From sequence record NC_047979.1: DNA of 64,000 nucleotides. One strand, written 5' to 3'. Below are positions 1 through 58,168 of the stretch, one piece after another. A model generated the notes under the pieces. That model saw nothing but the letters and a program-made list of their open reading frames with translations, had not been told where the DNA came from and made no database searches. The translations under genes were made by a program, and so were the position numbers. How positions within the stretch are numbered: the first letter of the stretch is position 1; the number at the start of each line of letters is the position of its first letter. The stretch comes from Escherichia phage Gostya9.

Positions 1-408
1 AATACAGTAACGTCTATTATTTTCCAGTTTAAGTCAAGGTGACTTAGTGGTTATGCCCTGCGGTATACTGGGGACTCGGTTAGGTTAGGGTCATGACTTC
101 CTACCTTTTTGCTGCTACTCAACAGGAGTTATCGCGAATTACCTGTGCTATTGTGCACCATTAGTGGCATCTCTCATGCCAGCATTTCCCACTTTGTGGA
201 TAGTTTGAAAAACTACTCCGATATGGAGGGAGAACTTCACTATCCTAGAATACCTTCTAAAGTTCTTCTTTAGCCTGGACATAGTTAAATCGTAATAAAA
301 CTATTCAGCAGACTGGTTGGTTAGCCTGGAACCAACTACCGCGTGGTTTAGGCAGTGCGCAACTAACCTCGGAAGCTTTTACGTTAAAAGCACCAGTTAT
401 CCAGTTCT

Positions 409-480
409 TACCGATCGTAGGATTCGAACCTACATCTTCCACCAGTTACGGCTTGATAATACCGTTTATACTAGATCGGC
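409..480 (-). tRNA. tRNA-like element (possibly degenerate tRNA or pseudo-tRNA); anticodon not assignable
   Basis: Minus-strand sequence GCCGATC...GTAGG-TTCGAAT-CCTAC-GATCGGT-A gives a canonical T-arm (5-bp stem, TTCGAAT loop) and a 7-bp acceptor stem with G1-U71 and discriminator A. The 40 nt between them do not fold into standard D and anticodon arms by hand (only an ACGG/CCGT 4-bp stem with a 10-nt loop). It lies directly downstream of an early-type promoter at 557-585. Confidence 0.4.
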
Positions 481-556
481 AGTGTTACTACATAAGTGAT
501 TTCCACACCCCACTATTTATAACTTAGAGAAGAATTACTCTCTAATTTATGAATAT

Positions 557-51247: not shown

Positions 51248-54200
51248 TTAAGAATTTCCTAGTGTTTTTAGGCTAGCACCATTCTCATTCAGAGCTAATT
51301 CTACTGCATCCCTCAGAGCACCGCTATTACTAGAGGCGAACTCTCTAAAACTAGCAGCATCCATAGCACTAATATTCAGGATGATAGGTCTTCCTGAAGC
51401 TGAATTAGAGGAATTTTTTAACTCATCATTAGGTGTAGCTTTCATAGGAACCATAGGAGTAATTACTTCTGTACCGTGTTCTCCCATCTGGTAGCTAACC
51501 CCTGGGTACATATTACCACCTTCGGCACGCGGCACAAATGAGTTGGCATTACCAATACCTTTCTCACCCCGTACATAAGATAGTTCTCCAGCATTAGCAG
51601 ACATAGATACATCAATGCTCTTCTGACGCTCTCCAAGAGTTAAATAACTAGTGGTATTTGCTCCAGAATCCACAGAGGGCATAGAGGATGCATTAGAAGC
51701 AGCGGCTAAGGATAGTGCGCCTGCAGCAGCCGCAGTGGCCATCATCGTTAACCCTAATGGTAAGAACGGTTGGGTAGCTGCAGCGTTCATCATAGCTACG
51801 GCTGTAGATATGATTATTTGCTTTTTAGCTTCTCGCTGCTGTATCTTAGTCTTTTCTGCCTCCAACTTCTTGATTTTAGCTTTAGATTCCTCAGATTTAC
51901 CATCACGCTTCTGTTCTGCTGCAATAGCCTGGTCTATTGCACTTATTTGCTGGTTAGCAGAATATGCCATCATCTGTCCCACCATCTGCATACCTGCAGA
52001 TATGGTTGTTATGCTATCCAAGCTATCTTGTGCATTAGCCACCACTGCTAAGGAGAAATTACCTATGCTGTTAGCCAATGCTGTAGAAGCAGAATCCACT
52101 TCTGACATCTTAGCTATAGCCTGATCATACATAGACATTCTATTCTCAAAATCAGCAAACTCTTTATCAGCACCAGATAATCCATTGGTAGGAGTGAATG
52201 TACCCCCTAGTGAGGATACGACTGATTTGTACGTTTGATCCTCTCTTTGCTTTTTAAGCTGTTCTAGGGCCGCTGAAGTTTTATAAATCTCATTACGATA
52301 CCTGATCTCTTCCTCGGTATTGCCCTTAGATAGTTCCAGCTGTTGCTGCAGAATGGATAGTCTTTCCGTAAGAATTTGGGATTGGCCAGTAACATTTCTC
52401 TGTGTTTGGCTAACCTCTAATGCATCCATGAGGGCTGATACATGTGAGGCAGTTGCCTGATTTTCTGCTTCCCATAGCTCTCTACTTATTTGTGCCTGAG
52501 CGCGCCTTGACTGTTCTACCTTAGCTTGACCATCCGCTTGTTTAGAGTATAATTCCGTTTTTTCCTGCTCTAACTGCAGCTCTAGTCTTAACTGCTCCAA
52601 ACGATACTGAGTACTCGTCATAGTGCGGTCATTAAGAAGAGCTATTTCTCTATCAATACCAAGAATCTTATCTGTGTAATCCTTGACCTTCTTCTGAGCT
52701 TCCATTCCCTGGTTAGTGAGTTTAATTTTCTCCAGCTGAATTTTTTCAATTTCTCTCTCAACAGCTTTGTTCCCCTGGTTTGTTTGAAGAACACGGCGTA
52801 AAGCAGCTTCTTGCTCTTCTAACTGTTGGAGTTCTAAACGCCTACCAGCTTCCTGTGCCTTTTCTTTATCCTTAGTTTGATTATATACATCAGCTATCTT
52901 CTGTTGAACTGCTAACTGATTTTTAGTTTCATTACCAGTTAGTTTAACGTACTCAGATAGAGCCTGGGATGCAGTTTTCATTTCAGACAGGGTGTTATAA
53001 CCCAGGTTAAGGTTTTTAACGTACTCATCTGCACTTTTACCAGTACCTTGAGATAGTGATTCTATATTTTTTATAGCATCTGCTAGTGTAGCACTAGTTT
53101 TAGCGGCGGTATCTGTACTCTGAGCAACGTTCTGTATATCATTAGCTAGGTCACTAGCAGTTTTCTTAGTTTGATTATATGCTTTCTGTTGTTCAGTTAG
53201 TCCTTTTAGTACTGTAGAGTTAAAGTCATATACAGCACCAGGATCAGTAGTATCCCTATGTAGATTAATCTGTTTCTGGAACTCTGGGTTAGCTTTTGCA
53301 GCAGCCGCACCCGCAGCTTGATAGGCTGACTTCCAAGCATTAAGGTTTTCAGTAGAATCCTCTACTTCCTTATCTAGTCTGGCTACTTGTAGACCCATAG
53401 CCGCTGTTTCTTCTACAAACTTTTTATTAGCTTCGGAAGAACCTATGCGCATCCCTCCTACTTCAAATCCCCCAGCAGCTAACCCAACGGGCATTCCCTC
53501 GCCCACCAACCTAATAGCGGCGGCAGTACTAGCGTCTGCTTGCTCCATTCGTTTATCGAACTCAGATTTTAGCTTATTACGCTTATCCAGGGATTCCCTA
53601 TACATATCTAGAGCTTTATTATACCCCTCTTCAGAGGCAGATAGACTTAAAGCAACAGCACCAACGTTGGTAGGATCTATCTGTCTATTAGTTTTTTCTT
53701 GAGCTCTAGCTGCTTCAGCAGATACAGAAGCCTGAGAAGTATAAAATACTGTGTTGATAGCATCAATTACTGGTCCTAAGTACTTAGCAGCAGCTTGTTG
53801 TATTGTTCTTAGTGCAGCATCTGCGTTAGCAGCAAACTGCTCCCACGGAGTAGCACGTAAAACTTCATCTAAGTAACCAAAACGTTTAGTAGACTCTGCT
53901 ATAACAGCATTAGCATACGCTTGCTGTTTCTGGAAAGTAGTGAGACTATTAATATTATAAGTTATACCCGTGTTAGCAGCATTTAGCTGTTTAACATAGT
54001 CAGCATATGCGTCATTAAGACGAATAGTAACACCAAGTTCATCCAGAAGTTCGATTTCCTGTTTTGATACACCCTTAATTACACGGTTAAGTGCATCAGT
54101 CATATCAACACCAAGAACAGCAGCAGCACGACGGGCTACTAGACCAAATTTATTAAGTTGCTCGGCATCAAATCCGTATGCAGAAGCAGAGGATGCTTGT

Positions 54201-54955
54201 CTCATAGCTTCTTCAAAGGAAATAGCGTACCCGGCTGCTTCTTGTAGTGATCTAGCAAGAGACTGAACAGGAGTACCTGTCTGAGTACCCACTATAACAC
54301 CAAATTCTTCTAGACGATTTAGCTGGTCACCTAGTTTAAGTTGTTCGAGTGCAGATTGCAGAACGAAGATGTTAGAAGCAATAGCAGCGTACAGAAGAGG
54401 TAAACCACCACCAACTTTAGCCATTGCCGCAAAGTTACGAGTAGCTCCGCGTGCTGAACCAGAAGTATTACCAATAGCTCTAGAAGCTCTACCAGCGGCA
54501 CCAGCAGTATCATTAAAACCTCTAGCTGTACCGCCTAAAACTCTATTGGTGTCGTACAATCTATCTTGAACTTTCTCTGTTGCAGCTGCAACATCATTAC
54601 CCATTGCTTTAACAGACCTAGATACTCCATCAAATCCAGCCTCTAGTTTGTCTGCTACTTCAATCATTGCAATAGATAGATCATCCAGCTTAGCACCTAT
54701 ACTATCAATAGATTTAGTGATACCAGCCATACCCCTACTAGCTTGCATTTTAGTAAGACTTTTCGCTGCTCTGTCTGCCGCCCTCTCAATGGAGTATAGA
54801 GTTTTGGGCATTTTACCTAACTGTTCATTTGTCAGTTCGGAAGCAGCAGCAGCATTTTCTAATGCATCAGATACGTTTTCGATAGACTTTGCAGTACGGG
54901 TTGCCCCCTTCTGTTTAACGTCTATTAGTAATTCTCGTATTAGCTTATCAGTCAT
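51248..54955 (-). CDS. tail tape measure protein (pb2-like)
   Basis: 1235 aa, largest late ORF; Ala/Gln/Glu-rich coiled-coil body with Gly-rich hydrophobic segments near the C-terminus, the usual TMP architecture. Confidence 0.8.
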   Translation of the reverse strand: MTDKLIRELLIDVKQKGATRTAKSIENVSDALENAAAASELTNEQLGKMPKTLYSIERAADRAAKSLTKMQASRGMAGITKSIDSIGAKLDDLSIAMIEVADKLEAGFDGVSRSVKAMGNDVAAATEKVQDRLYDTNRVLGGTARGFNDTAGAAGRASRAIGNTSGSARGATRNFAAMAKVGGGLPLLYAAIASNIFVLQSALEQLKLGDQLNRLEEFGVIVGTQTGTPVQSLARSLQEAAGYAISFEEAMRQASSASAYGFDAEQLNKFGLVARRAAAVLGVDMTDALNRVIKGVSKQEIELLDELGVTIRLNDAYADYVKQLNAANTGITYNINSLTTFQKQQAYANAVIAESTKRFGYLDEVLRATPWEQFAANADAALRTIQQAAAKYLGPVIDAINTVFYTSQASVSAEAARAQEKTNRQIDPTNVGAVALSLSASEEGYNKALDMYRESLDKRNKLKSEFDKRMEQADASTAAAIRLVGEGMPVGLAAGGFEVGGMRIGSSEANKKFVEETAAMGLQVARLDKEVEDSTENLNAWKSAYQAAGAAAAKANPEFQKQINLHRDTTDPGAVYDFNSTVLKGLTEQQKAYNQTKKTASDLANDIQNVAQSTDTAAKTSATLADAIKNIESLSQGTGKSADEYVKNLNLGYNTLSEMKTASQALSEYVKLTGNETKNQLAVQQKIADVYNQTKDKEKAQEAGRRLELQQLEEQEAALRRVLQTNQGNKAVEREIEKIQLEKIKLTNQGMEAQKKVKDYTDKILGIDREIALLNDRTMTSTQYRLEQLRLELQLEQEKTELYSKQADGQAKVEQSRRAQAQISRELWEAENQATASHVSALMDALEVSQTQRNVTGQSQILTERLSILQQQLELSKGNTEEEIRYRNEIYKTSAALEQLKKQREDQTYKSVVSSLGGTFTPTNGLSGADKEFADFENRMSMYDQAIAKMSEVDSASTALANSIGNFSLAVVANAQDSLDSITTISAGMQMVGQMMAYSANQQISAIDQAIAAEQKRDGKSEESKAKIKKLEAEKTKIQQREAKKQIIISTAVAMMNAAATQPFLPLGLTMMATAAAAGALSLAAASNASSMPSVDSGANTTSYLTLGERQKSIDVSMSANAGELSYVRGEKGIGNANSFVPRAEGGNMYPGVSYQMGEHGTEVITPMVPMKATPNDELKNSSNSASGRPIILNISAMDAASFREFASSNSGALRDAVELALNENGASLKTLGNS

Positions 54956-54970
54956 AATTTATTTTTCCCA

Positions 54971-55003
54971 ATAAAAAAGGCTCTGGGCAAATCACCCAGA
55001 GCC
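54971..55003 (-). terminator. rho-independent terminator
   Basis: Hairpin GGCTCTGGG-TGATTTG-CCCAGAGCC followed on the minus strand by TTTTTTAT. Confidence 0.55.
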
Positions 55004-55038: not shown

Positions 55039-55530
55039 TTACCGTGCTCGAGATTTGGCATGTGGCTTAACGTTAGGTATTCTACCGTTTTGCGGTTTAT
55101 GCTTCTCAGCACGTTTACGTGCAGCGTCTACAGCTTTAGCATCAAATATATTGATAATGTGTAGAACAAATTCTTTTTCTATAGGATCGGTAATCCCATA
55201 AATATCGAATAAGACACCTAAAGCAGCTTTGTCTTTGCCTATAAATATAGGAAAGTCACCCGGTATGAAACAGTCAACTAGACTGTTATAGATATTCATA
55301 CTAATAGCTACAATAGGTGGAAAGTCTTCAAGTTCAACAGGCATAGCCTTAGGATCAGGTTCTATACCCATTGACTCACAAAGTATTAAGTATTGTTGTT
55401 TAGTCATTTTAGATGCTGAGCTTTTAATACACTTATCTGCAAAATCAGCAACAGCATCTAGTAGTTCTTTACGCTTTTGAGCTACGAAAAGTGTCGAGGT
55501 GGAACACTGTCTGGTTGATCCAAGAATCAA
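55039..55530 (-). CDS. tail assembly chaperone, downstream ORF (T-like; possibly expressed as a frameshift fusion)
   Basis: Directly upstream of the tape-measure gene; overlaps the preceding ORF by about 60 nt in the +1 frame; the track start is a TTG, and the first in-frame ATG (55407) lacks an RBS. Confidence 0.45.
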   Translation of the reverse strand: MILGSTRQCSTSTLFVAQKRKELLDAVADFADKCIKSSASKMTKQQYLILCESMGIEPDPKAMPVELEDFPPIVAISMNIYNSLVDCFIPGDFPIFIGKDKAALGVLFDIYGITDPIEKEFVLHIINIFDAKAVDAARKRAEKHKPQNGRIPNVKPHAKSRAR

Positions 55531-55873
55531 ACGCAGCAGAGTTCTGCATAAGCATTACAGCATTATCACGACTAAATGGAACTTCAGTAGTAGGATCAGC
55601 ATCTGTTTCAATCAGCATCAGCTTTTCAACGTCGCCTACAGTCAAACCAGTCCAACCTTTAATTGCAGCATCAACGAAAGCTTCAATAAACTTATCGTCA
55701 TCCTGTACTTGAATTAGGGTACCATTAACCCATTCATCGCGTTTGGCAGAAGAGATAACACGTTTAGAAGTAGCACGAGACATATAATTAAGCTCTAGCT
55801 TAAAGTTTGGCATACCTGGGTATGAAAGAGTAATAGTACGGGTATCAAGAGTAATATCTTTTAAGTTAATCAT
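55469..55873 (-). CDS. tail assembly chaperone, upstream ORF (G-like)
   Basis: 134 aa between the tail tube region and the tape-measure gene; ATG overlaps the upstream stop. Confidence 0.5.
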   Translation of the reverse strand: MINLKDITLDTRTITLSYPGMPNFKLELNYMSRATSKRVISSAKRDEWVNGTLIQVQDDDKFIEAFVDAAIKGWTGLTVGDVEKLMLIETDADPTTEVPFSRDNAVMLMQNSAAFDSWINQTVFHLDTFRSSKA

Positions 55874-56769
55874 TATTTTCTTTCTCCAAAGAAGTTTATT
55901 TCTACAGGGTCTGAATCAGCAGTAGGGATTACATCATACTCTACCTGATACAAATCTGAGAAGTTTAGGCGTTTTGAAATACGTGCTAAAGGGAATGTTA
56001 TAGAAACATATTTATTTTTAATAATTAGTGGAGTTCTTGTTTCAGGATCTAGATTCAAGAACTTATCTCCTACCAATCTCTTAACATAATAGAAAGCTAG
56101 CGTTGCGGAAGCATTCATCTCATTGACATAAGCTCGTTTATTAGTATAAACTTTGTTTATATCAAATATACTTCTATCCTCTCTCCAAGAACATTGTTGC
56201 TGGAAGGACATAGATGCTGAAACTAATGCAGGCAATGGTGCGCTATTGGTATACACAGCCGGAGGACTATATGGGAGTACCTCACCTTGTGTAATTGTAT
56301 ATCCATCACGGAAAGTAGATACTTCAGAGAATTTTCCAGACTCAATACCAACATTTAGAATCGGTATACTCTTATCTAGAGAAAAGTCAACTGTTGATAC
56401 ATAACAGTTTTCAAAATAAATACAGCTATTATTATGATTAATAATATACATATTGAACATAATAGGTTCAATATTGGGAGTATTTCTTGGCAAAAATAAA
56501 GAATTTCCCTCACGCGTGAATCCCATCCAGTCAAAGAAATTAGACTCAATAAGCGTAGTACTGAAATTTATTGCCAATGAAATAGATGAAGGATCTTGAG
56601 CATTAATAATAGAGTCTGCATAGTTAGTACGATTATGGATAGTACGCCTAAGGGTTTTAAACTCCTGAAAAGACGTACTAGCATCATAGTTAGAGAGGGC
56701 ATCGAAATGATACCCTCTACCGTCATACTCAATAACTATTTTAGACTCTCGCATGAGAGAATAAAACAT
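55873..56769 (-). CDS. tail protein (298 aa), function unassigned
   Basis: ATG-initiated ORF immediately downstream of the major tail tube gene. Confidence 0.45.
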   Translation of the reverse strand: MFYSLMRESKIVIEYDGRGYHFDALSNYDASTSFQEFKTLRRTIHNRTNYADSIINAQDPSSISLAINFSTTLIESNFFDWMGFTREGNSLFLPRNTPNIEPIMFNMYIINHNNSCIYFENCYVSTVDFSLDKSIPILNVGIESGKFSEVSTFRDGYTITQGEVLPYSPPAVYTNSAPLPALVSASMSFQQQCSWREDRSIFDINKVYTNKRAYVNEMNASATLAFYYVKRLVGDKFLNLDPETRTPLIIKNKYVSITFPLARISKRLNFSDLYQVEYDVIPTADSDPVEINFFGERK

Positions 56770-56773
56770 TTAA

Positions 56774-58168
56774 TTAACCACCTGCTGTTACAGTAATCTG
56801 CTTAGTGCCTTTAACTCCAGAACCATCTTTAGCAGTAGCTTCTATGGTTACTACACCAGTTTTACTAGCATCTGCTGTTAACAGTCCTGCTGCACTGATA
56901 GTAGCTGCGTCACCAGCAGTGATAGCCCAAGTAACTTCCTTATTCTGTGCAGAAGAAGGAGTAACTTCAACACTCATTTGGAGAGTAGCCGAGTTGTTTA
57001 CTGTAGTAACATCACCAGCAGATTTAACAGTAATTGCGGTTACAGCATCAGTAGACCCATCACCATTAACAATCAAGTTATTAATAGTTGTTTTAGTATA
57101 CTTGTTAGAAAATCCAAGATAACCTTCGTCACCAGTATCCAAATCTGTAGGAATAGCCTTAAATTCCACTGAGGTACCAAGTACATCATCAGTTTCAATA
57201 GTAGGAATATTAACGTGCGCCTGTTTAGCTACTAGAATAGCTGCAGGACGTTCTTCGTCATATTCACCACCAAGTACCAGAGCGATTTCGAAGCGGTTAA
57301 CTACTTTCAGAGTTTTGATAAGATCTTTATACAGTTCCATAGAACCAAGAGATTTATCATTCAGATAAGCAGTTAATGAACCCGTTAACTCAAACGCACC
57401 AGTAAATGAACCGATAGGAATATTTACACGGGACATAATATTTGGGGTTAGATATGTGATGTTGTTATTAACGGTAAAAGTACCACCAGTAATAGGTATG
57501 TCATATGCCTTACCAGAATCCATATCCTTAATTTTCAGGATAGTTAACTTGTTCTTAATGTAAGAACTCTGAATAGTCATATAAGTTTCATCATCAATAC
57601 CTAGCGCATCTGGATCAAATGGTTGCTCATCCAGTGGGATTAGCTGATTACCATTACCAGACCAAGTTACACGACCAATATCTTCAATATCAACGTTAAC
57701 TTCTGCCTGGTTGATCTGGCAAGAGTCAATGTAACTCCACGCATTGTCAGTCAGAATGTAAATATGCAGCATAGCCAGTTCGTGATATGCGTTATCTTTG
57801 AAGTTAACCATGAAGTTAGTAGCATTATTATGTGCTCCAGTATCTCCATCAAGGTCAATAGCTTTACCACTAGAAAGTGCATGCCATAACATATAGTCAG
57901 GAACAATTTGTTTACCAGTAGTTGTATCCTCGTATGGTAGGATATAGGTGGAAAAGCTCCACTCAGCCGCGTTCAAGGAATCGTTAAAACGTTTAGAACC
58001 ACGAGTAGGACGCGGACCAGCTTCGTTAACAGTAATATCTGTTGAGTTACTGTCCTGACCCCAAGAAATATCATCCTGAACTAGAATCTCTTGCGTGTTG
58101 GTCGTATCATGACCAGTCTTAACCGTAGACACGAAGATTCGAGTATTACGTAATAGTTGTAAAGACAT
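56774..58168 (-). CDS. major tail tube protein (pb6-like) with C-terminal Ig-like domain
   Basis: 464 aa, which matches the T5 pb6 length as I recall it; C-terminal Big_2-like segment (VTAITVKSAGDVTTV...TWAITAGDAATISAAGLLTA...VTIEATAKDGSG). Confidence 0.7.
   Translation of the reverse strand: MSLQLLRNTRIFVSTVKTGHDTTNTQEILVQDDISWGQDSNSTDITVNEAGPRPTRGSKRFNDSLNAAEWSFSTYILPYEDTTTGKQIVPDYMLWHALSSGKAIDLDGDTGAHNNATNFMVNFKDNAYHELAMLHIYILTDNAWSYIDSCQINQAEVNVDIEDIGRVTWSGNGNQLIPLDEQPFDPDALGIDDETYMTIQSSYIKNKLTILKIKDMDSGKAYDIPITGGTFTVNNNITYLTPNIMSRVNIPIGSFTGAFELTGSLTAYLNDKSLGSMELYKDLIKTLKVVNRFEIALVLGGEYDEERPAAILVAKQAHVNIPTIETDDVLGTSVEFKAIPTDLDTGDEGYLGFSNKYTKTTINNLIVNGDGSTDAVTAITVKSAGDVTTVNNSATLQMSVEVTPSSAQNKEVTWAITAGDAATISAAGLLTADASKTGVVTIEATAKDGSGVKGTKQITVTAGG

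Follow-up and report, generated by a model that had tools for sequence, protein, structure and literature searches.

A candidate +1 ribosomal frameshift site, UUU_CGU, joining the two tail assembly chaperone reading frames of T5-like phages

In phage lambda, the tail assembly chaperones gpG and gpGT arise by a programmed -1 frameshift (Levin 1993; Xu, Hendrix and Duda 2004), and -1, -2 or +1 shifts are used by tailed phages to set the ratio of G to GT (PMC5009743). Phage Mu, which shifts by -2, and the haloarchaeal virus HSTV-2, for which a +1 shift is predicted, reach the same relative chaperone frame by non-canonical routes (PMC5009743) and demonstrate that G/GT production is compatible with shifts in other directions. 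The corresponding gene pair of Escherichia phage Gostya9 (sequence record NC_047979.1) is described here. All coordinates are positions in the 64,000-nucleotide stretch of this genome that was analysed, hereafter the window, and the chaperone genes are on its minus strand. The downstream frame of the pair, T, is very likely made only as a 277-amino-acid G-T fusion, by +1 ribosomal frameshifting at ACU_UUU_CGU 55492-55484, where tRNA-Phe would move from UUU to UUC.

The core of the proposed site has a described counterpart in influenza A virus. PA-X is made by a +1 shift on UCC_UUU_CGU, and mass spectrometry established the junction ...DSF-VSPR (Firth et al. 2012; PMC3498833). In that system mass spectrometry showed no -2 product, and no stimulator is evident (PMC3498833). 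UUU_CGN sites related to that of PA-X have been proposed in amalgaviruses, fijiviruses and chronic bee paralysis virus. In E. coli, UUU_Ynn is prone to +1 shifting (Fu and Parker 1994; Schwartz and Curran 1997, as cited in PMC5009743), and in Yersinia a UUU_UGG +1 site has been proposed for the YopN-TyeA hybrid; it is unconfirmed, and mutation of the site failed to abolish the hybrid. A +1 slip in the P site of bacterial ribosomes also occurs in prfB (RF2), at CUU_UGA_C with an upstream Shine-Dalgarno-like stimulator.

The Gostya9 pair resembles lambda G/GT in its position just upstream of the tape measure gene, in a second open reading frame (ORF) that has no start of its own and extends a short first ORF, in the low level of fusion expected and in an arrangement kept despite sequence divergence. 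It differs from lambda in that the shift would be +1 and not -1, that an X_XXY_YYZ heptamer is missing, since the -1 frame is closed, that no Pfam tail assembly chaperone family is matched above threshold, and that p140, an additional gene, separates the tube gene from G. With influenza PA-X the locus shares the UUU_CGU core, the predicted movement of P-site tRNA-Phe from UUU to UUC, the F-V junction, the lack of an obvious flanking stimulator and a low expected level of product. The ribosomes here are bacterial, however; CGU is common here and rare in birds and mammals; the E-site UCC is not conserved; and PA-X is proven by mass spectrometry, whereas the T5-type site is known from sequence alone. 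Unlike the E. coli UUU_Ynn sites, which have been described as errors of translation, and unlike YopN-TyeA, the T5-type site is conserved across a phage family in which a fusion is functionally expected. Mu shifts by -2 on a different slippery sequence, and re-pairing by -2 is poor at the T5-type site; HSTV-2, for its part, infects an archaeon. Compared with prfB, the proposed event would likewise be a bacterial +1 slip in the P site, but the A-site codon is CGU and no conserved purine-rich element is found upstream.

The elements of the proposed fusion are as follows.

55469..55873, minus strand: G ORF, tail assembly chaperone in frame 0, 134 amino acids, from ATG 55873 to TAA 55471-55469 (ORF list)
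55484..55492, minus strand: proposed +1 frameshift cassette ACU_UUU_CGU (invariance in 47/47 sequences, 11-nucleotide shift windows, likeness to influenza PA-X and UUU_Ynn)
55039..55485, minus strand: T part of the fusion, +1 frame, 148 codons plus the stop at 55041-55039 (phrog_3914 at E = 2.6e-56, phrog_313, frame check, fusions colinear across clades)

Relative to G, the downstream ORF is shifted by +1 (equivalently -2). Its open stretch extends from 55554 to the stop codon 55041-55039; the ORF list has it start at TTG 55530. The -1 frame is open for 7 codons only, round the G stop, so that no -1 product is possible and no X_XXY_YYZ heptamer is usable in register. The 1.1 kb round the pair has at least 80% nucleotide identity to 444 phage records, 438 of them over at least 80% of its length; the records among these that were checked for taxonomy are Tequintavirus or Epseptimavirus genomes. 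The window is from a T5-like phage (Tequintavirus).

G matches phrog_313, 'Tail assembly chaperone', with E = 3.4e-34 over profile positions 12-141 of 258. T matches the tail assembly chaperone family phrog_3914 and, in addition, positions 170-258 of phrog_313; a single family profile thus spans both halves. The assignment as chaperones is made because of these PHROG families together with synteny. G, T and 11 conceptual fusions gave no Pfam family above threshold, Phage_TAC_5 appearing only as a weak sub-threshold match (E = 0.024) in 2/11 relatives. A profile search of PDB sequences found no relative, and the AlphaFold single-sequence model of G was unusable (predicted local distance difference test, pLDDT, of 34). 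When the conceptual fusion was used in tblastn, 908 phage records were retrieved, every one as a two-piece match. This recurrence, with the matches of both halves to PHROG chaperone families, shows that the arrangement is not due to chance.

An earlier note on this DNA had recognised a chaperone pair in the G/GT position, which the gene order and the phrog_313 and phrog_3914 matches bear out, and had read the downstream frame as +1 and not the canonical -1, which is what the short -1 frame confirms. The overlap of about 60 nucleotides that it gave is real in the window but peculiar to it, depending on TTG 55530; the conserved shift window is as short as 11 nucleotides, in phages D28 and My1. 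It had seen no canonical heptamer by eye. None is usable, but a candidate slippery site is present, namely the +1 tetranucleotide UUU_C within ACU_UUU_CGU. The comparison of the overlap over T5-like phages, which the same note had put forward as a check, was run, and UUU_CG(U/A) and the downstream +1 frame are kept throughout.

This comparison covered 47 Demerecviridae sequences, made up of representatives of 16 diverged lineages and 28 T5-like IMG/VR loci, among which identity of the G proteins falls to about 28%. The lineages are T5-like, Epseptimavirus, Yersinia phiR2-01, Klebsiella Sugarlandvirus, Pantoea AAS21, Enterobacter KKP_3711, Serratia Slocum, phage Eos, Pectobacterium My1, Providencia PR1, an IMG/VR contig, and the Vibrio phages PG07, Ceto, JSF12, D51 and D28. 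The hosts include Escherichia, Salmonella, Yersinia, Klebsiella, Pantoea, Enterobacter, Serratia, Pectobacterium, Providencia and five Vibrio groups. In all 47 sequences and all 16 lineages the downstream ORF is in the +1 frame, and an in-frame UUU CG(U/A) lies 6-39 nucleotides upstream of the G stop (47/47). Conservation of the aligned G proteins ends at an invariant Phe-Arg, beyond which their tails, 0-14 residues long, are unrelated. Aeromonas AhSzq-1 was left out of the count: it has TTT CGA at the expected place, but stops in both frames, in a partial genome of poor quality. Its record carries many in-frame stops throughout the tail genes, which resembles sequencing or assembly error and not biology. 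Proteus PM135 was outside the comparison, the stretch fetched being without the tail region.

Within the cassette of the window, the P-site UUU is at 55489-55487, the +1 re-pairing codon UUC at 55488-55486 and the next +1 codon, GUA, at 55485-55483. Codon choice at this place is uniform in a way that it is not elsewhere in the same genes. Phe is encoded elsewhere in the chaperone genes by TTT 97 times and by TTC 96 times, and at another invariant Phe (F115) the figures are TTT 8 and TTC 7; at the shift site it is TTT in 16/16 lineages, the product of the lineage TTT frequencies being 4e-6. Arg codons elsewhere in the chaperone genes are CGT or CGA in 49% of cases, and at the shift site in 16/16 lineages (CGU in 13, CGA in 3). 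To judge from these codon counts, conservation of the site exceeds that of the protein and holds at the nucleotide level.

Stop codons in the +1 frame confine the place of the shift further. In D28 and My1, G ends with UUU CGU UAA, a +1-frame stop lies 5 nucleotides upstream of UUU, and the +1 frame opens 11 nucleotides before the G stop; any shift in these two phages must therefore fall within A_ACA_ACU_UUC_GUU. T5 and 28/31 other T5-like sequences have a +1-frame TAG 5 nucleotides before UUU. Owing to this TAG, which arises at the Leu codon UUA or CUA before the site, the +1 frame of these sequences, T5 included, opens just 23 nucleotides before the G stop. The shift windows of D28, My1 and T5 intersect at UUU_CGN.

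A +1-frame stop (UAG/UAA) ending 5 nucleotides before UUU is present in most lineages, formed by a UUA/CUA Leu codon and the following G/A (equivalent to 55497-55495). The window and two IMG/VR relatives (L017 and L043) have CUC at that Leu codon and hence no such stop. The stop may serve to limit products of shifts elsewhere, but is clearly dispensable. My1 carries the exact PA-X cassette, UCC_UUU_CGU, followed at once by UAA, and its +1-frame stop 5 nucleotides upstream of UUU is UAG. The Vibrio phage JSF12, alone, has a Shine-Dalgarno-like AGGUGGG abutting UUU_CGU, reminiscent of the prfB stimulator; of all the G tails beyond the site, that of JSF12 is the longest (12 codons).

Use of UUU before a pyrimidine was also examined in the 60 long ORFs of the window. 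A pyrimidine follows UUU in 19% of cases and UUC in 56% (odds ratio 0.19, p = 7e-25). UUU-pyrimidine is the most avoided NNU-Y context in these ORFs, and the bias is the strongest among all NNU/NNC pairs. Phe-Arg in them is written as TTT-AGR or TTC-CGN far more commonly than as TTT-CGN. Such avoidance is the pattern that selection against accidental shifting would produce, and it suggests genome-wide selection against accidental +1 shifts.

According to the proposed mechanism, the majority of ribosomes would translate G and terminate at UAA 55471-55469. In a minority, probably a few per cent, peptidyl-tRNA-Phe on UUU 55489-55487, with CGU in the A site, would slip by +1 to UUC 55488-55486. 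GUA would be decoded next, giving the 277-amino-acid fusion with the junction ...HLDTF-VAQKRKELL... and the predicted tryptic junction peptide DNAVMLMQNSAAFDSWINQTVFHLDTFVAQK. If the parts act as in lambda gpG/gpGT, G would be the portion that binds the tape measure protein pb2, and T the portion that recruits the tail tube protein.

The stretch between the G stop and the annotated second gene bears on how T is translated, and three further features lie in it or next to it.

55408..55468, minus strand: linker annotated as intergenic, 61 nucleotides with +1-coding behaviour, KELLDAVADFADKCIKSSASK (substitution pattern by codon position)
55405..55407, minus strand: ATG from which the second chaperone is annotated to begin, most likely an internal codon for Met (anti-Shine-Dalgarno energy, non-conserved Met)
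55410..55460, minus strand: predicted hairpin with a 9-bp stem, UAGAUGCUG at 55460-55452 with CAGCAUCUA at 55418-55410 (minimum free energy fold)

In 31 unique T5-like sequences (84-99% identical) the linker has 21 variable sites, which fall 5/1/15 by codon position of the +1 frame (binomial P = 4e-4). The distributions used for comparison are 26/4/88 for G and 18/12/73 for the body of T. The peptide encoded by the linker, VAQKRKELLDAVADFADKCIKSSASK, is almost invariant in the T5-like sequences. Variation from the shift site to the G stop is limited to 2 sites, both synonymous in the +1 frame and non-synonymous in frame 0. The +1 frame of T5 contains no ATG, GTG or TTG from the upstream UAG to the annotated ATG, so that translation of this segment needs ribosomes coming from G.

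The alternative that survives best is that G and T are two separate proteins made with no frameshift, T being started at ATG 55407 (122 amino acids) or, in the window, at TTG 55530. The N-terminal peptide predicted under separate initiation is MTKQQYLILCESMGIEPDPK. The downstream frame has its first ATG at 55407, and every annotated record inspected uses this as the start; two coding sequences are annotated in all public records examined, gene callers choose the equivalent of Met 55407 in many homologues, and this Met is conserved in T5-like phages and also in a sister clade, described below, whose chaperone genes carry -1 sites. We nevertheless consider separate initiation unlikely. Pairing with the anti-Shine-Dalgarno sequence in the 18 nucleotides upstream amounts to -0.1 kcal/mol for ATG 55407 and +0.2 kcal/mol for TTG 55530, compared with -6.4 kcal/mol for the start of G and a median of -5.9 kcal/mol for the 60 long ORFs of the window. 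In T5 and most relatives, the +1-frame TAG stands downstream of TTG 55530. The Met is replaced by I, V, L or F in the Klebsiella, Pantoea and most Vibrio lineages, and the sister clade retains it, as an internal Met, despite its canonical heptamers. Moreover, the 61 nucleotides before the ATG evolve as +1 coding sequence with an invariant peptide. The annotated starts of T differ between lineages and cut into invariant residues: the Klebsiella start comes after an invariant Tyr, and that of PG07 keeps 58 codons. Taken with its pairing energy, the distribution of this residue indicates that ATG 55407 is most likely an internal Met codon. The earlier note's view that the downstream ORF lacks a start of its own thus agrees with the pairing energies of both candidate starts, and its suggestion that T may be made only as a fusion gains support from the comparative evidence of site conservation, coding linker and absence of a conserved start.

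The 3' arm of the predicted stem covers positions -11 to -3 before ATG 55407, where a Shine-Dalgarno sequence would sit, and ends 2 nucleotides before the ATG; this too speaks against separate initiation. The 80-nucleotide minimum free energy fold containing the stem (55489-55410) has -22.4 kcal/mol and z = -3.2. Stems at similar, not identical, places are seen in Eos, phiR2-01 and KKP_3711 when the folds are compared by eye; no stem structure common to all lineages was apparent in single-sequence folds compared in this way. The 9-bp stem might occlude internal initiation, or be unrelated. A role for the 55460-55410 stem as frameshift stimulator was rejected, as it is too distant from the site.

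Database searches bear on the same question. A search of 1.84 billion representative proteins gave 146 T-domain homologues, all of them short separate ORFs, as expected of a universally frameshifted gene. No natural in-frame G-T fusion was found among these 1.84 billion proteins, the long hits P0006 and P0131 being repeat-protein artefacts. A word-indexed search of 5.8 billion proteins with the fusion gave no match, although the family is present in more than 900 phage genomes; this was put down to a limitation of the database or tool and is uninformative. The library used for the exhaustive HMMER search did contain a T5-type protein (P0001, 97% identity).

A second alternative is a -2 ribosomal frameshift of the phage Mu G/GT type, which would give ...DTF-F-VAQK, with one residue more. 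Mu provides the precedent, and the run of four U in T5-like phages (ACU_UUU_C) permits partial re-pairing on CUU. Both shifts lead to the identical frame, as the earlier note recognised when it spoke of '+1 (or -2)', but +1 is far better supported. Re-pairing on UUC is perfect in 16/16 lineages, whereas after a -2 shift tRNA-Phe would have to re-pair on CUU, CCU, ACU, GGU or UGU according to lineage, which is poor and unconserved. The identical UUU_CGU of influenza gave only the +1 product by mass spectrometry (PMC3498833). The direction would hence be +1, and a -2 shift is very unlikely.

The fusion might instead be encoded in frame by some of the mRNAs, RNA polymerase having dropped one U from the U run or added two. 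A short U run is indeed present at the site, with four U in the T5-like phages, but most lineages have only three (CCUUUCG, ACUUUCG, GGUUUCG), and it is UUU_CG that is conserved and not the length of the run. Known transcriptional slippage sites need roughly 7-9 identical bases, so that 3-4 U are far below this, and slippage of this kind is extremely improbable. Least credible of all is that translation, after termination at the G stop, reinitiates or is coupled at a non-canonical start further downstream. In its favour one may cite the position of that stop inside the conserved +1 ORF and an in-frame AUU 24 nucleotides upstream of the annotated ATG. Against it, the T5 +1 frame has no ATG, GTG or TTG between the upstream stop and ATG 55407, conservation of the peptide starts right at UUC, upstream of both the G stop and the AUU, and the G stop itself varies in position from 6 to 39 nucleotides after the site.

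Homologous genes with the other shift direction are found in the sister clade. In 26 uncultured relatives (L044-L068 and L077) T is in the -1 frame, and the two proteins belong to the phrog_313 and phrog_3914 families as well. Their G has 33-39% identity to the query G (that of the window, or of D28 in the case of L077), and a major tail protein gene lies upstream. Canonical heptamers, G_GGA_AAC or A_AAU_UUU, stand in register at the homologous Phe codon, either immediately before it or ending on it. Such a heptamer at the end of G is absent from the +1-type sequences and present in these 26 alone. No cultured member of the -1 clade was present in the phage collection examined.

Aligned with one another, the conceptual -1 and +1 fusions are colinear across the junction and for the full length of the T part. 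At the junction, GAC CUG GGA AAC UUU UCG AAG of the -1 clade and GAC CUU AAC AAC UUU CGA GGC of the +1 clade are one U apart, and in both clades the G frame reads Asn-Phe and the T frame Phe-Glu. From this alignment we infer a change between -1 and +1 in the family, in one direction or the other, through gain or loss of a single base in the U run, with the shift-prone UUU_C taking over.

Several points weigh against +1 frameshifting at UUU_CGU. The genome announcement of Klebsiella phage Sugarland, citing Zivanovic 2014, states that T5 has no predicted frameshift signal; no other statement on the point was found in the literature searched. Met 55407 is conserved in many relatives, and this wide conservation, together with the 146 separately called ORFs, would allow for minor independent initiation. 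The lineages compared are related, so that the codon statistics overstate their independence, yet synonymous sites are saturated at such distances. Conservation of Phe-Arg could be driven in part by the protein, and the +1-frame Val or Glu codon limits the choice of base at the third position of CGN. The E-site codon varies across lineages (ACU, ACC, AAC, GGG, UUG, CAC, UCC and others), UCC being found in My1 alone. Among Arg codons of the window CGT is used most (373/820), and CGU is the commonest Arg codon in E. coli, at 20.2 per 1000 codons (PMC3498833); a slow A-site codon is thus not evident as a stimulus, only CGA among the site variants being rare. No conserved Shine-Dalgarno-like or purine-rich element was found upstream in the lineages examined, with the exception of JSF12, and no hairpin 5-10 nucleotides downstream is common to all lineages in single-sequence folds compared by eye.

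The genes surrounding the pair are arranged as in T5, the order on the minus strand being pb6 tail tube, p140, G, T and pb2 tape measure protein.

56774-58168, minus strand: pb6 tail tube gene, further upstream (T5 annotation)
55873..56769, minus strand: p140 baseplate tube protein, the upstream neighbour (PF23779 at E = 2.6e-141, phrog_3889, T5 annotation)
51248..54955, minus strand: pb2 tape measure protein, 1235 amino acids, the downstream neighbour (ORF list, annotated homologues)

In T5 an HNH endonuclease gene (T5.141) sits between the chaperones and pb2; it is absent from the window. Between the T stop and the tape measure start, a terminator-like hairpin occupies 54979-55003 on the minus strand, with an 11-bp stem, GGCTCTGGG...CCCAGAGCC, followed by TTTTTT, and the T5 annotation has a terminator at the equivalent place. 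In phage NBSal005 the tape measure gene is annotated as two pieces, which resembles a sequencing or assembly error and not biology. The sole tRNA gene of the window (408-481, minus strand) was called by ARAGORN as tRNA-Ser with anticodon ACT, in which an unmodified wobble A would be unusual.

The G/GT strategy is well known, and its +1 and -2 variants have been noted in other phages; on the present comparison the T5-type UUU_CGN variant appears to be new. A literature search, whose reach did not extend to Zivanovic 2014 and Xu 2004, found no paper linking UUU_CGN to a phage tail chaperone. A wider proposal can be put forward only tentatively, and we regard it as rather more doubtful than not: UUU_CGN may be a self-sufficient +1 cassette on bacterial and eukaryotic ribosomes alike, recruited throughout the Demerecviridae, T5 included, to set the ratio of G to GT. 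Its dependence on CGU or CGA would then reflect the inosine-containing tRNA-Arg(ICG) or the codon itself, and not rarity, and the switch between -1 and +1 would have come about through a single-U indel beside the old heptamer (GGGAAAC_UUU_UCG to AAC_UUU_CG).

The current two-gene annotations of T5-like chaperones appear to be wrong. Should the +1 frameshift be real, a 277-amino-acid product is missing from several hundred Demerecviridae annotations and another product is given the wrong start, and, T5 being a classical model phage, models of its tail assembly should include the GT fusion. It would also mean family-wide use in bacteria of UUU_CGN, so far established in viruses of eukaryotes, and prompts the question of what makes CGN necessary although it is not rare. 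Frameshift predictors, which are poor at handling +1 sites, gain a useful positive case in this site. The -1 and +1 clades, with their sites at the same codon and one nucleotide apart, constitute a natural system for the evolution of frameshift direction.

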